Shown piece after piece: positions 1,590 through 64,000 of a DNA stretch of 64,000 nucleotides. Every line of letters starts with the position of its first letter. The first letter of the stretch is position 1. The translations under genes and the position numbers were made by a program. The notes under the pieces are model-generated. The model did no database searches, was not told the DNA's origin, and was given only the letters and a program-made list of their open reading frames with translations. The DNA lies in assembly GCA_030603565.1 (NCBI GenBank), contig JAUVXM010000006.1, forward strand, positions 607 to 64,606, given 5' to 3'. This stretch comes from Candidatus Aminicenantes bacterium (GTDB lineage: Bacteria; Acidobacteriota; Aminicenantia; Aminicenantales; Aminicenantaceae).

Positions 1590-1743
1590 GCCTGGACACT
1601 GGTAAATCCCGGAGAAAGCCATCCGGAACAACGCGGGCATGGTTCCTCGAGAGAATCTCGAGGAGAGCGTTGTGAGGACAGGAAGGGATTTTCCGGCTGG
1701 GGGAAATTCCTGTCTTTCGTAGGGAATTACCCGTATTCAGGCC
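1590..1743 (+). repeat. Family-A structured intergenic element, copy 1 (more diverged). A conserved 3' tail extends to about 1787.
   Basis: About 90% identical to 38001-38155 and 63346-63500. Terminal inverted repeats GCCTGGACACTGGTAA...TTACCCGTATTCAGGC. Internal hairpins CCTCGAGAGAATCTCGAGG and GGGATTTTCCggctGGGGGAAATTCC. Confidence 0.8.
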
Positions 1744-1949
1744 TAACAAATCATGTAAGTTAAAAAAAATTGGGGCGGCTCCATATGTTTATTTCATTGA
1801 CAGATAAGTTTAGAGAAATTATATTTTAGGAATAATGAAACGGATTAACAGCCGGGAAAGTATATACAGATAAGACTGTATGATAATTCTGAAGGCTATC
1901 TATCGTCTATATAAAAAAGGTCATTTCGAGTGACCATAGGTAAAGGACA

Positions 1950-12904: not shown

Positions 12905-13058
12905 AAAATTTATTCTCCTAAATTAACTCATCAGCCTAAGCTGATAAATATAATTACATTGTTAACCTAAAAATGTCAATAAAGCGTTAACCAGGAGCCC
13001 CCCCATTTTTTCTAAGCATCTGGACCTTAAGCAAGAATCAGGAAAATATAAAGAAAAA

Positions 13059-13346
13059 TAGAATTTTACGCTGAGGACACTGAGGACACGGATAAATGCT
13101 AGAAAACTTTAGACACGGATTTACGCGGATCTTCGCGGATAAAACTAAGATGTTGTTTTCTTTTGCCGATGAATCGTCAAAACAAAACAACCCTTCATCA
13201 CTTTGCTTCGCGAAGTAAGTTGAACTAAAGGTTTGCATTTTGTGCTCCAGCACAAATTGGAAAGAGCTTTTTGTTTTTTGGATACAAGCCAAAAAAGAAA
13301 AAGCTTCTGACTCTTATCCGTGTCAATCAGCGTCTATCCGTGTCTA
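13059..13346 (+). repeat. Family-B repeat, copy 1. Shared core 13059-13218, bounded by inverted repeats GACACGGATA / TATCCGTGTC.
   Basis: About 85% identical over roughly 160 nt to 36118-36267. Contains a conserved 19-bp hairpin at 13153-13191. GACACGGAT occurs twice at the 5' side, and TATCCGTGTC occurs twice at 13315-13344. Confidence 0.75.
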
Positions 13347-13953: not shown

Positions 13954-14042
13954 GGAGAGGTGGCCGAGTGGTTGAAGGCGGCGGTCTCGAAAATCGCTAT
14001 ACTGTGAATGCAGTATCGTGGGTTCGAATCCCACCCTCTCCG
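13954..14042 (+). tRNA. tRNA-Ser (anticodon CGA)
   Basis: GGAGAGGTGGCCGAGTGG...ctCGAaa...GGTTCGAATCCCACCCTCTCCG, with a long variable arm. Acceptor stem GGAGAGG/CCTCTCC. CCA is not encoded. Confidence 0.9.
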
Positions 14043-17659: not shown

Positions 17660-17750
<91 letters not shown>

Positions 17751-17828
17751 TTCCCAATTGACCTGATTCTTGCTTATAGCTCAGATGCTTATATAAAATT
17801 GGGGGAACTCTAGGTATTTTCCGCTTGA

Positions 17829-35999: not shown

Positions 36000-36117
36000 G
36001 TTTTCTCCTCTTCCGGGGACTATCCCCAGACTTAGAGCAATCTCGTTATAATGTTAGCATATTTAGCATAGGTAATTCCACCCTTCCTAAATTTAATGGA
36101 GTCTGACCATTTTTTTT

Positions 36118-36267
36118 AGAATTTTACATTGAGGACGCTGAGGACATGGATAAATGCAAGAAAATATTAGACACAGATTTACGCGGATAAAAAAAAGATG
36201 TTATTTTGTTTTGCCGATGAATCGTCAAAACAAAATAACCATTCATCACTTCGCTCCGCGAAGTAAC
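36118..36267 (+). repeat. Family-B repeat, copy 2 (core only; no 3' inverted repeat)
   Basis: About 85% identical to 13059-13218. The hairpin at 36200-36239 shows compensatory changes relative to copy 1. Confidence 0.75.
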
Positions 36268-37910: not shown

Positions 37911-38000
37911 CCTGGAGATATAGGGACATCCTACTTAATTAATTCAGAAGTCATTAATATGATTAAGAATTAAGTATGATGTCCATATCTTTCAAGAGCT

Positions 38001-38155
38001 GGCATGGATACTGGTAAATCCCGGAGAAAGCCATCCGGAGCAACGCGGGCATGGTTCCTCGAGAGAATCTCGAGGAGAGCGTTATGAGGACAGGAAGGGA
38101 TTTCCCCGCTGGGGAAAATCCCTGTCTTTCGAAGGGACTTACCAGTATCCAGGCC
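38001..38155 (+). repeat. Family-A structured intergenic element, copy 2. The conserved 3' tail extends to about 38200.
   Basis: Terminal inverted repeats GGCATGGATACTGGTAA...TTACCAGTATCCAGGCC. The internal hairpins match those of copies 1 and 3. Confidence 0.8.
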
Positions 38156-38286
38156 TTACATCTCTTGTAAGTTTAAAAAATTGGGGAAACTCCAAATCTA
38201 TATTCTTCTTGATATTTTTCAATTACTTGATATTATTTGTAGCGATATTTTTAGTGCATAATTCATGATAATCGAGGAGGAATCAT

Positions 38287-42534: not shown

Positions 42535-43992
42535 ATGAGTGATAAGCGAAATGTTAAAATCCTAGTTGTGGATGATAAAGAAAACATCCGCAAATCTCTA
42601 AAAATGATCCTCGAATACGAAGGCAACACATTTCTTGAGGCTGCTGATGGAGAAGAAGCCCTTGAAATAATAGATGAGACAGTAGGTTTGGATTTGATTC
42701 TTCTGGATATTCAGCTTCCAGGGATGGATGGCCTGGAAGTGCTATCAGAGTTGAAAAAAAAGCCTTATTCACCGGAAGTAATCATGATCTCCGGACATGG
42801 AACGGTCCAAACTGCAGTAGAGGCAACTAAATTAGGCGCTTTTGACTTTATTGAAAAGCCTCTCCACCGGGAAAGAGTATTACTGAGTATCCAACATGCC
42901 TTAAATCAGAAACGATTAGAACGCGAATGTAAGGACTTACGTAAAAAAGCAGAAAAAAAATATCATCTTATAGGTAACCACCCTTTGATGAAAAAGCTCT
43001 GGGAGCAGATATTAAAGACAGCTCCTACTAATGCTACGATATTTATTTTTGGAGAAAGCGGTACTGGAAAAGAGCTGATCGCCAGGGCCATACATGAAAA
43101 CAGCTCCCGGAAAAATGAAGCATTTATTCAAGTAAATTGTGCTGCTATTCCGGAAGAGCTTATTGAAAGCGAGCTTTTCGGACATATTAGAGGGGCCTTC
43201 ACTGGAGCAACGGAAAAGAAAAAAGGGAAGTTCGAACTAGCAGATGGCGGTAGCATATTTCTCGATGAGATCGGTGATATGAGTTTAAAGACTCAGGCCA
43301 AAGTTTTGCGAGTTCTAGAAGAAGGAGAAGTGCAGAAGGTAGGGTCAAGCAAAACAGGAAAAGTAGATGTAAGAGTAATAGCGGCAACTAATAAGAATTT
43401 GAAAACAGAAATTAAGGAAGGGAATTTTCGTGAGGATCTATATTTCCGCCTGAATGTTGTGCCTTTGAATTCCCCTCCGCTGAGAGAAAAAAAAGAAGAC
43501 ATCCCTATTCTGATCGATTATTTCAATAAGAATTTTGTGAAGGAAAATAATTTTAGAGAAAAAAAATTCTCTGAAGATATAATTGAAGCTATGGTAAAAT
43601 ATCCCTGGAAAGGAAATGTGCGGGAGTTAAAAAATATTGTTGAGAGGATTATTATTATGACTGATTCTGATACAATAGCAAAAAAAGACCTTCCCAAGCA
43701 GATCAAAGGAGAAGCTAACGTATATTTTCCTGAGGCTGACAAGGTGAAAAGCCTGAAGGTATTCCGAGATTTGGCGGAGAAAGAGTTTATTTTAGCCAAG
43801 CTGGAGGAATGTGACTGGAATATATCCCAGACAGCAAGAGAGATCGAAACTCCCCGCAGTAATCTTTATAAAAAATTAGAACAATTTGGCATAAAAATAA
43901 AGGCTGGAGCGGGCAAGGTGGTTGCTCCTTCTTCTCGTAATAAGAATGGAGGGGAGGAAAGTCCGGACTCTATAGGGCAGGATGGTCGCTAA
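42535..43992 (+). CDS. Sigma-54-dependent response regulator (NtrC family)
   Basis: 485 aa. REC domain (phospho-acceptor D), AAA+ sigma54-activator domain ([14 protein letters not shown]) and a C-terminal Fis-type HTH. The last ~30 codons overlap rnpB. Confidence 0.85.
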
Positions 43993-44287
43993 CAGCGACT
44001 CCGGGCGACCGGAGGAAAGTGCCACAGAAAACACACCGCCCTGTGCGGACTGCGTTTAAGCTGCCGCGCGGAGTAAGGGTGAAATGGTGAGGTAAGAGCT
44101 CACCGCCTTGATGGTGACATCAGGGGCAGGGTAAACCCCATCCAGAGCAAGACCAAATCGGACCCTGTTGAGGCTGCTCGTCTCGGGGCGGGTAGGTCGC
44201 TAAACCTCTTGAGAAATCAAGGGGTCAGATAAATAACCACCCCTGCTTTTATAAGGAACAGAATCCGGCTTACGTCCCACTCCAGCC
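43902..44287 (+). ncRNA. rnpB: RNase P RNA, bacterial type A
   Basis: Block matches to E. coli M1 RNA include GGAGGAAAGTCCGG.CTC.ATAGGGCAG, GTAAGGGTGAAA.GGTG.GGTAAGAGC.CACC, GGTAAAC.CCA.CC.GAGCAAG.CCAAAT.GG and ACAGAA.CCGGCTTA. P1 pairing GGCTGGAGCGGG / CCCACTCCAGCC. Length about 386 nt. Confidence 0.9.
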
Positions 44288-50224: not shown

Positions 50225-50237
50225 TAACTCTTACATT

Positions 50238-50313
<76 letters not shown>

Positions 50314-58611: not shown

Positions 58612-58645
58612 TAAGTAGTATAGTAAAATGTTGATTTGAAAAGAT

Positions 58646-58683
58646 GTATCATACATATCAACATTTTTTTTGAATAGTTCAGG
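58646..58683 (+). promoter_or_regulatory. Conserved intergenic motif (family C), site e, 22 nt upstream of the aldolase start
   Basis: GTATCATACATATCAACATTTTTTTTGAATAGTTCAGG. Confidence 0.4.
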
Positions 58684-63247: not shown

Positions 63248-63345
63248 ACTTTTTTATAGAGAAGAATCAAATTTGAATTTAATACTATCTATTTTTTCAT
63301 CTTTTTTTCCGGATTTCCTTTCAAATTTTATTCAGGCTAAGATCA

Positions 63346-63500
63346 GACATGGATACTGGTAAATCCCGCAGAAAGCCATCCGGAACAACGCGGGCATGGT
63401 TCCTCGAGAAAATCTCGAGGAGAGCGTTGTGAGGACAGGAAGGGATTTCCCGGCCGGGGGAAATCCCTGTCTTTCGCAGGGACTTACCAGTATCCATGCC
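63346..63500 (+). repeat. Family-A structured intergenic element, copy 3
   Basis: Perfect 15-bp terminal inverted repeats CATGGATACTGGTAA / TTACCAGTATCCATG. Internal hairpin GGGATTTCCCggccGGGGGAAATCCC. Confidence 0.8.
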
Positions 63501-63563
63501 GGCTCTTTCCGACCCAGCTTCCCATTTGCTACAAGCAAAGACACACCTGAATTTCATCTTAAC

Positions 63564-63624
63564 ATTTACTATTTAAAATTTTCTAAGTATCATACATATA
63601 GACATTTTTTATAAATAGTTCAGG
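63564..63624 (+). promoter_or_regulatory. Conserved intergenic motif (family C), extended version, site f
   Basis: ATTTACTATTTAAAATTTTCTAAGTATCATACATATAGACATTTTTTATAAATAGTTCAGG. Confidence 0.4.
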
Positions 63625-63927
63625 TGGAACTTGATTATTCACGAGGCGAGGTTGCCGCAGATATGTAAAAGCGGAAAATAGAAAAACCGTGAAATGTGAA
63701 TTGTAATAATTAAAGCGTTATGTTAAAAGATTTGTATCTTATGAAATTCTGATGTGGCTGAAGCGACATTGAAGATTTAGCCTTCTGATGAGTTTTTTCG
63801 AGGGAATCCGACGTAGTCGGACGTCGAGTATGTTTGACCCACGGACGGGGGGAGTTACGCAGACGCCGAGAAAAACGAAGAGGAATGGCGTTAAAAATCT
63901 GAAGCGAGCAAAAGCCACACCTGAATT

Positions 63928-63956
63928 TCATACATATAGACATTTTTTATGAATAA
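63928..63956 (+). promoter_or_regulatory. Conserved intergenic motif (family C), site g, running into the RBS of the last gene
   Basis: TTCATACATATAGACATTTTTTATGAATAATAAAGGAG. Preceded by CACACCTGAATTTCAT, which is also present at 63542. Confidence 0.4.
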
Positions 63957-63971
63957 TAAAGGAGATAGCAT

Positions 63972-64000
63972 ATGAAGACAATAGGCCTTATCGGAGGAAT
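63972..64000 (+). CDS. Start of a CDS, possibly Asp/Glu racemase family (only 9 codons visible)
   Basis: RBS AAAGGAG followed by ATG. MKTIGLIGG resembles the N-terminus of aspartate racemases. Confidence 0.3.

Follow-up and report, generated by a model that had tools for sequence, protein, structure and literature searches.

What kind of element is a structured repeat of about 155 nucleotides (nt) that occurs three times in one bacterial contig, each time in the same orientation as the gene that follows it? The question is raised by the window analysed here, a stretch of 64,000 nt from contig JAUVXM010000006.1 of a Candidatus Aminicenantes bacterium, a member of an abundant and uncultured group of sediment and subsurface bacteria. 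An earlier note on this DNA had proposed that the repeat was either a novel non-coding RNA (ncRNA) or a MITE (miniature inverted-repeat transposable element). Neither option fits cleanly: the conserved fold is indeed an uncatalogued one, and the hallmarks of a MITE fail. We found that the window copies belong to one subfamily, which we call A1, of a family of Aminicenantes repeats. The reading that we favour, and to which we give about an even chance, is that the element is a REPIN-like, non-autonomous and non-coding repeat whose fold is probably the substrate of an enzyme acting in trans.

The three copies lie on the plus strand where the earlier note had placed them (Table 1), and exactly three were found in the window by a profile hidden Markov model (HMM) and, separately, by a covariance model. 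Their pairwise identity, formerly put at about 90%, is 91.6-93.5%, and a 31-nt core has three matches in the window against none expected from shuffles. The copies are 55% G+C, in a window of 41% G+C and between flanks of 32-37% G+C. They fold far more stably than dinucleotide shuffles (z = -6.7 with RNA parameters and -7.0 with DNA parameters), values that, like covariation, do not separate RNA from single-stranded DNA. The 155-nt unit holds as a core; the repeat unit is longer and consists of a 5' leader, the core and, usually, a 3' tail of about 40 nt. The 5' consensus of 62 copies is AAGAGCTGG, and copies of a sister subfamily, A2, are preceded by the related string AAAGAGCGG. The tail, a module common to most A1 and A2 copies, is real on copies 1 and 2, as had been noticed, and is missing from copy 3 and from about one third of A1 copies. 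Start codons of plus-strand genes, said earlier to lie 130-470 nt downstream, follow at 207, 132 and 473 nt from copies 1, 2 and 3: those of an AcrB-type RND pump (ATG at 1950), of the Xaa-Pro aminopeptidase gene pepP, and of a gene starting at 63973 that encodes an Asp/Glu racemase in relatives. We agree that the copies have no credible coding potential.

Selection keeps the fold while helix sequences turn over

The terminal inverted repeats, central hairpin and distal hairpin described earlier are all present in the copies, as parts of one larger plan. The folding strand of the core is the strand that is co-directional with the gene on its 3' side. On this strand a long closing stem of 14-24 bp (P1, lengthened in copy 3 by AAGATCAGA / CGGCTCTT) is followed by P2 (GAAAG/CUUUC) and then by a three-way junction with two arms, P3 and P4. 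The P3 arm has a near-invariant asymmetric loop, GGGCAYGGU opposite GA, and beyond it a capping hairpin whose loop varies freely, while the P4 arm is the hairpin GCGGAUUUUCC-nCGCn-GGGGAAAAUCCGC. P3 covaries, being ACAACGC/GCGUUGU in A1 and GGACU-GA-GC/GC-GA-AGUCC, with tandem G·A pairs, elsewhere; P3 and the closing stem of the A3 subfamily both conserve such tandem pairs. Independent minimum-energy folds of 14 divergent representatives gave the same plan.

Covariation, which had been read from three copies, was too thin at that depth (one compensated pair) and proved strong with 62 and then with 124 sequences. Among the 62 A1 copies 96% of cells are paired, and double-sided changes occur at 16 pairs against 5.7 ± 1.4 after shuffling; none of 500 shuffles reached the observed number. 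Within A1, 11 of the 21 closing-stem pairs covary. A covariance model built from A1 only retrieves every subfamily at full length, at 40-110 bits. In the cross-family alignment of 124 sequences, which was fitted to the covariance model and to that extent favours the structure, 90.5% of cells are paired against 69.7% in shuffled data and 43-53% with slid partners, and 1205 cells show double changes against 389 and 142-250, respectively. Covariation is seen there at 50 of 58 pairs, all 21 pairs of P1 among them.

Mean pairwise identity declines outward, from 0.95 for the interior (with columns forced by the search pattern removed) through 0.90-0.93 for P2, 0.81-0.83 for P1 and 0.64 for the tail to 0.34-0.49 for the flanks. 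Between subfamilies with complete turnover of their stems, the internal loops and the sequences of P2 and P4 are near-invariant. Our findings demonstrate that selection keeps the fold of this element while its helix sequences turn over. The strand can also be told: G·U outnumbers A·C by 164 to 54, and 33 pairs are led by G·U against 8 led by A·C, therefore the strand reported here is the folding strand.

An alternative interior fold was offered by RNAalifold and by the RNA minimum-energy calculation, with CCAU after P2 paired to AUGG of the conserved loop. It was rejected because the Y of GGGCAYGG varies between C and U while its supposed partner is unchanged, and because the P3 pairing covaries across subfamilies. 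The opposite strand of the conserved core (38047-38059; in all copies) reads GAACC-RTG-CCCGC after a GGAG-like string from the capping hairpin, and so resembles a ribosome-binding site with an ATG or GTG start. A conserved open reading frame (ORF) there was rejected, since the peptides, compared by eye, differ by subfamily (MPALFRMAF.., and MPAALRRAF and MPAHPCSRFS, both followed by a stop) and the bias towards G·U lies on the folding strand; the likeness to a start codon is probably coincidental.

Subfamilies, gain and loss, and promoter register

A search with an exact 25-nt pattern of the core, in which segments predicted to be single-stranded served as anchors, gave 78 loci, all of them in three Aminicenantes metagenome-assembled genomes (MAGs) that hold at least 40, 22 and 20 exact-core copies by hand tally; the profile HMM gave 97 matches within these loci. 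Many core matches lie at contig ends, as expected of a repeat that breaks assemblies. A metagenome scan on shared strings, built to exclude A1, found at least 120 loci; among those listed there are 69 distinct cores in about 19 clusters, G+C-rich forms included. The sister subfamilies (A2, A3, A4 and others) have other helix sequences and an identical architecture, and the junction strings GCGGGCAYGGUUC, GAGAGCG and GGAUUU..CGC..GGGAAAAU are common to them. A2, for example, was exposed by weak full-length profile matches. Its closing stem and central hairpin have entirely different sequences from those of A1 at identical lengths and spacings, and it shares with A1 GCGGGCATGGTTC, GAGAGCG, GGATTT..CGCTGGGG..AAAT and the tail's end. 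Several subfamilies occur together in a single genome. A3, a G+C-rich form, has a host that is also a member of the Aminicenantes, the host's methionyl-tRNA synthetase being 87% identical to a 'Candidatus Aminicenantales' protein.

In chimeric copies the GCGGGCAYGG core is the exact junction between a 5' half from one subfamily and a 3' half from a second. Half copies end at the same core, and 5' halves ending there lie about 20 nt upstream of many A3 copies. Together, the chimeras and half copies suggest recombination or template switching at the core.

No Rfam family reached its threshold on the three copies in a scan of the whole window, where the best permissive match was P11 at 16.6 bits against a threshold of 70, and there were no Rfam matches in 12 loci with divergent subfamilies. 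A known RNA family was rejected on these searches, at gathering and permissive thresholds alike, in agreement with the earlier note. Viral contigs (two pattern scans) and plasmids and phages (blastn) gave no match to the element, and on these empty searches a phage or plasmid origin was rejected. A text search of the papers that could be searched returned no description of such an element in Aminicenantes and no report on the repeat content of this group. The family is previously uncatalogued.

Comparison of close relatives shows that copies come and go. Copy 1 is found at the same site in two other genomes (L076 and L056), each with an identity of about 93% to the window. Four relatives (L199-L202), with PepP proteins 94, 92, 72 and 70% identical, lack copy 2 upstream of pepP, and in one of these four the spacer is only 49 nt. 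An A2 copy in L199 is absent at the matching M16 peptidase/response-regulator site of the window and of L200. The permease/racemase site of copy 3 is filled in a 99% relative (L203) and empty in a 92% relative (L204), where the spacer is 168 nt; the block that differs consists of copy 3 and outer arms (TTTTATTCAGGC / ACCTGAATTTCAT). These last three sites are our cases of presence/absence polymorphism at orthologous positions, and in this respect, as in copy number, the mobile-repeat side of the MITE proposal was right in spirit. Orthologous pairs among the first 78 loci number only three, all filled. Where species have a site in common, identity is 78-97% for the element with its 3' side, and the proximal 120 nt on the 5' side are often unrelated.

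The usual marks of insertion are another matter, and here the MITE proposal fails on target-site duplications and on TA termini. A fixed-offset scan for duplications gave at most 10 of 55 for a 3-mer, inside conserved sequence, and the longest word shared between flanks is 7.98 nt for the same copy against 7.90 nt for mismatched flanks, which is no duplication signal; with both tests negative, general target-site duplication was rejected. A 9-nt direct repeat, TTTCATCTT, borders the copy 3 block (63295-63303 and 63552-63560), a single case in flanks where words this long recur by chance. The termini are GGCATGG...CCATGCC, not TA, and the 'terminal inverted repeats' of 17-22 bp behave as a paired stem in which changes are compensated. 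In the 1186 ORFs of the loci (about 1.4 Mb) no transposase-like family recurs near the elements, and no related autonomous insertion sequence sharing these termini was found; the genes beside the elements are housekeeping genes. A partner transposase was also sought by clustering the ORFs of the loci, which yielded ordinary paralogues only.

One transposase gene deserves separate mention. In the complete 4.43-Mb Aminicenantes genome CP070825.1 (L202:312-1577) an IS110-family gene, with DEDD_Tnp_IS110 and Transposase_20 domains, lies 1.4 kb upstream of pepP; the covariance model found no A-family element in that locus.

Promoters are, throughout, sequence predictions of sigma70-type -35/-10 sites. 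That of the RND pump gene begins 13 nt past the tail of copy 1, between the element and the ATG. Sense -35/-10 matches lie downstream of 39 of 129 copies, against 3, 5 and 12 in three control placements. Their positions peak sharply, with 37 matches in one 25-nt bin 50-75 nt past P1, just beyond the tail, over a background of 3-5. When copies are aligned on the tail end the spacers are unrelated (0.34 identity), yet TTG stands at +15-17 and TA at +38-39; the copies sit tail-first about 13 nt upstream of the -35 box of the predicted promoters of unrelated host genes. In the tail-less A3 the -35 comes some 3-8 nt after the stem, and the 3' arm itself bears GGGACTCC about 12 nt ahead of it. Two solo A2-type 3' arms with tail but no core (CAATTGACCTGATTCTTGCTTA..AAAATTGGGGGAACTCT in the plus-strand case) occur in the window with the same spacing to a -35-like box, 12-13 nt, as full copies: one lies directly 3' of a tRNA gene, and the other is followed by 12 nt, TTGACA, 17 nt and TAATTA. 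Tails also precede the promoters of tRNA genes. On the 5' side a good sense promoter within 100 nt is found for 5 of 129 copies, and sense promoter-like sites show a weak bump 75-100 nt upstream (12 matches in one bin, background about 5). Sense transcription from an upstream promoter of a second repeat, 'family B' (described below), was considered and rejected: its ATGAATAATTCAGG motif abuts 12 A1 copies and the promoter part is never there, the full promoter being upstream of 0 of 57 A1 and 0 of 25 A2 copies.

The downstream gene is co-directional for 59 of 76 copies (59 against 17, p = 1.4e-6), which bears out the orientation claimed from the window alone. Spacers holding A1 copies are divergent in 25 cases, of 50 classifiable copies, and convergent in 9, and between tandem genes the element is co-directional in 13 cases against 3. 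Neighbouring elements form 10 pairs, 8 of them 5'-to-5' (back-to-back) and none 3'-to-3'. Downstream lie housekeeping genes with no relation to one another (RND pump, Xaa-Pro aminopeptidase, racemase, murA, cysS, birA, tRNAs and others), and there is no coherent set of functions among them across copies. In the window copies and the loci read, no G+C-rich hairpin with a T-run, the form of a terminator, follows the element. A predicted promoter in fixed register between element and gene would leave the element outside the transcript from that promoter, so that the element appears to lie upstream of the facing gene's promoter and not in the 5' untranslated region; the placement 'in 5' regions', in the sense of a leader, is not borne out. 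Judged on these features the element does not look like a riboswitch or an ordinary small-RNA gene.

Possible readings: mobile DNA or functional RNA

In the reading that we favour, a trans-acting enzyme would recognise the element by its single-stranded fold and would copy or recombine it. The folded strand may be single-stranded DNA, as has been proposed for REPINs and IS200/IS605-type elements, or an RNA intermediate. The scarcity of upstream promoters and the many divergent contexts make single-stranded DNA somewhat more likely than RNA. On the strength of so rich a conserved core, an RNA function stands as a rival reading. Copies might persist just upstream of promoters through a position that leaves promoter and gene together, or through a tail that serves as a promoter-upstream module. 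Such a role of the tail fits a DNA or an RNA reading and may explain the fixed register.

REPINs form a long hairpin in single-stranded DNA or mRNA (PMC3116915). The Aminicenantes element resembles the RAYT-associated REPIN/REP-BIME repeats of Pseudomonas and Enterobacteria in being a short, non-coding, high-copy, extragenic repeat that persists vertically in its lineage and forms mosaic clusters with other modules, and in having neither an internal transposase nor target-site duplications. It differs in architecture, being a three-way junction with near-invariant internal loops, whereas a REPIN is made of two inverted REPs of about 25 nt and a spacer; the two inverted REPs and simple hairpin by which REPINs are defined (PMC3116915) are not found in it. 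No RAYT is tied to the Aminicenantes elements, no genome-wide RAYT search having been made. REPs lie mostly at the 3' ends of genes, whereas the Aminicenantes copies favour promoter-containing spacers, in register with the -35. IS200/IS605-derived PATEs and the ends of HUH elements show strand-specific recognition of folded single-stranded DNA, no target-site duplications and a non-random orientation. The Aminicenantes element is like them in the lack of duplications and in its non-random orientation, and would be like them in strand-specific recognition of a folded single strand. In PATEs and HUH elements either end has small sub-terminal hairpins of its own, and the insertion point is 3' of a fixed tetra- or pentanucleotide, whereas the ends of the Aminicenantes element pair together, no fixed target word is apparent and no TnpA or TnpB with matching ends was seen in the loci.

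The HEARO/IscB omega RNA, the IS605-orfB motifs and the IS110 bridge RNA are similar in that a conserved multi-helix fold of 150-250 nt, with strong covariation and invariant junctions, is carried on mobile DNA. They adjoin the nuclease or recombinase gene that they serve and have promoters, whereas the Aminicenantes copies stand alone beside housekeeping genes; the Rfam models of HEARO and the IS605-orfB motifs gave no match on the window or the 12 loci. Bacterial MITEs such as Correia/NEMIS, ERIC, RUP and YPAL are alike in being intergenic, multi-copy repeats of 100-200 bp with inverted ends (review, PMC2229807), and in having transcripts or strands for which stable stem-loops are predicted; in some, Correia for example, there are promoter elements or protein-binding sites, and nearby genes are affected. 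They are defined by terminal inverted repeats, 5'-TA-3' termini, A+T richness and target-site duplications (PMC2229807). The Aminicenantes element has inverted termini, although these behave as a covarying stem, and is G+C-rich without general duplications or TA termini; MITEs keep a transposase-binding sequence, whereas here the stem covaries instead.

Several points weigh against a REPIN-like repeat recognised in trans. No mobilising enzyme has been identified, no genome-wide search for RAYT or IS200-like genes having been made. Filled and empty sites differ by more than the element, and no precise footprint or transposition intermediate is defined. The copy sets were gathered by exact-match core patterns, which inflates conservation of the core, and only the forced columns were corrected. 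The multi-branched core with its near-invariant loops is richer than any known transposase-recognised hairpin and more typical of a functional RNA. The fixed -35 register and the conservation of some copies across species could reflect a host function, not selfish spread, and neither the thermodynamic nor the covariation data can tell RNA from single-stranded DNA.

Of the rival explanations, the earlier note leaned towards an RNA. A functional structured RNA, transcribed in the sense direction as a long leader or as a stand-alone small RNA, ribozyme or protein scaffold, with the loops as a ligand, protein or catalytic site, would account for very strong covariation in every helix, for the preference for G·U on the sense strand, for internal loops, P2 and P4 that stay near-invariant while stems turn over, and for copies that are co-oriented with the downstream gene and give no coding signal. 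The weak upstream bump of promoter-like sites (12 against about 5 at 75-100 nt) agrees with it, and in 13 tandem contexts the gene upstream could supply a read-through transcript of the element. We nevertheless think it unlikely: the predicted fixed-register promoter would put the element outside the transcript that starts there, a good upstream sense promoter is present in only 5 of 129 cases and a full family B promoter in none, 25 of 50 classifiable A1 copies lie between divergent genes with nothing reading in, and no terminator follows. Dozens or more copies per genome, upstream of unrelated housekeeping genes and individually dispensable in close relatives, also argue against this RNA reading. 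A host-co-opted DNA module of the promoter-upstream region, spread as a useful cassette, is a similarly doubtful proposition. On this account the tail (an A-tract and GGGRACTCC about 13 nt before the -35) would bind the alpha subunits of RNA polymerase or a regulator, and the palindromic core would shield or tune the promoter by acting as insulator, as terminator or as a cruciform that absorbs supercoils. It draws support from the register, fixed despite unrelated spacers, which extends to the A3 arm bearing GGGACTCC and to core-less tails, those before tRNA promoters included, and also from conservation of the element with its 3' and not its 5' side at shared sites, from pairs that stand back-to-back and face outward, and from the retention of copy 1 in three species-level genomes. 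A role in double-stranded DNA leaves the G·U bias, the tandem G·A pairs and the compensatory changes in short hairpins unexplained, however. The most conserved part is the interior core and not the promoter-proximal tail (0.95 against 0.64), about one third of A1 copies are tail-less, and orthologous promoters in close relatives work without the element.

An ordinary MITE, that is an internally deleted DDE-type insertion sequence that moves by cut and paste, makes target-site duplications and folds only as a by-product of its inverted repeats, is very improbable. The element agrees with it in length (155-260 nt), in inverted termini of 17-22 bp and in high-copy, intergenic occurrence, and one filled/empty comparison has the 9-nt repeat at the block borders. 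Against this, no fixed boundary pair gives a duplication and flank words are no longer than in mismatched flanks; the termini lack TA, a G+C-rich element lies in an A+T-rich genome, and in about 1.4 Mb of flanking sequence no related transposase gene was found. The inverted repeats, moreover, compensate and tolerate G·U, and the internal hairpins and P3 and P4 covary too. A bolder proposal, which we consider quite unlikely, is that the three-way junction, the GGGCAYGGU/GA loop and P2/P4 constitute a new class of functional RNA on a mobile repeat, either a self-processing ribozyme or the scaffold or guide of a still unlinked recombinase or transposase. If so, the family would be a prokaryotic, RNA-based replicator like a short interspersed element (SINE), homing to the upstream edge of promoters.

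The family now has a covariance model and a supported structure, and its recognition should aid assembly and annotation since the repeat breaks MAG assemblies. It is a mixture of traits seldom found together: in copy number and turnover it resembles a selfish repeat, in structural conservation a functional RNA, and its spatial relation to host promoters is fixed. Should the fold be a recognition structure in single-stranded DNA, as we favour, REPIN-like systems would extend to a far more elaborate substrate; if it is an RNA, it would represent a new RNA class; and if the tail tunes promoters, the family would be an example of promoter regions built from mobile modules.

Neighbouring repeats and other features

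Table 1. Positions of the A-family copies and their parts, and of other features. Coordinates refer to the window except where a locus (L) is named.
Feature	Position	Strand	Basis or remark
Copy 1, A1, P1 to P1	1590-1743	+	covariance-model match, 182 bits
3' tail of copy 1: small hairpin CTAACAnnnnnTGTAAG, A-tract, then GGGGCGGCTCC	1744-1783	+	read directly
Predicted sigma70-type promoter of RND pump gene	1797-1825	+	read directly; TTGACA 1797-1802, 17-nt spacer, TATATT 1820-1825
Solo A2-type 3' arm and tail without core	12994-13045	-	likeness to A2 consensus
Solo A2-type 3' arm and tail without core	17757-17811	+	likeness to A2 consensus
5' leader of copy 2, AAGAGCT, part of repeat unit	37994-38000	+	5' consensus of 62 copies
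Copy 2, A1	38001-38155	+	covariance-model match, 197 bits
Copy 2 P1	38001-38017 with 38139-38155		
Copy 2 P1b	38019-38022 with 38134-38137		
Copy 2 P2	38026-38030 with 38126-38130		
Copy 2 P3 arm	38031-38046 with 38079-38094		
Copy 2 conserved loop, GGGCATGGT	38047-38055		
Copy 2 capping hairpin	38056-38076		
Copy 2 P4	38096-38123		
3' tail of copy 2: CTTACATCTCTTGTAAG, TTTAAAAAATT, GGGGAAACTCC	38156-38196	+	
Block present in window and L203, absent in L204	63304-63551	+	alignment
Copy 3, A1, without tail	63346-63500	+	covariance-model match, 196 bits
Promoter-like site 3' of copy 3 block	63565-63593	+	TTTACT 63565-63570, 17-nt spacer, TATCAT 63588-63593
Chimeric copies	L069:6367-6519, L075:2498-2624, L159:4695-4865, L177:6689-6859, L121:6831-6993		
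Half copies, ending at GCGGGCAYGG core	L104:7030-7230		
Family B	58642-58683, 63583-63624, 63921-63962		about 10 window matches to ATGAATAATTCAGG
Family C, third repeat of about 160 nt	13059-13218, 36117-36266		two copies, 88-89% identical
RNase P RNA, bacterial class A	43906-44287		298 bits
tRNA genes (three)	13954-14042, 17660-17747, 50237-50310		

Family B looks like a portable promoter and leader: TTTACw, 17 nt and TATCAT are followed by ACATATAGACATTTTTTATGAATAATTCAGG, and the leader reaches the ribosome-binding site and ATG of unrelated genes. The promoter-like site 3' of the copy 3 block is part of this repeated module. The last 14 nt of family B also lie flush against many A1 copies, and one A2 variant has a 5' arm that is similar to them. 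Compared with the 99% relative (L203:3070-3535), the window has about 338 extra nt at 63591-63929, made up of an insert of about 310 nt with inverted ends (TTCAGGTGG...CCACACCTGAA) and 28 duplicated nt from the leader of family B. An 81% relative (L205) conserves part of the insert at the same spacer, and this part also adjoins the element copy in L078. The insert precedes the racemase gene as a further mobile or structured module, and it gave no Rfam match.

Of the two family C copies, one adjoins a solo tail and one is found upstream of the gene for serine dehydratase. Between that gene and pepP, two relatives with PepP 92-94% identical (L199:1400-3000 and L200:1394-3000) have a gene for a TLC-type ATP/ADP transporter, where the window (37911-38286) has only the repeat-bearing spacer. 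The RNase P RNA and tRNA genes are ordinary features that confirm a bacterial chromosome.

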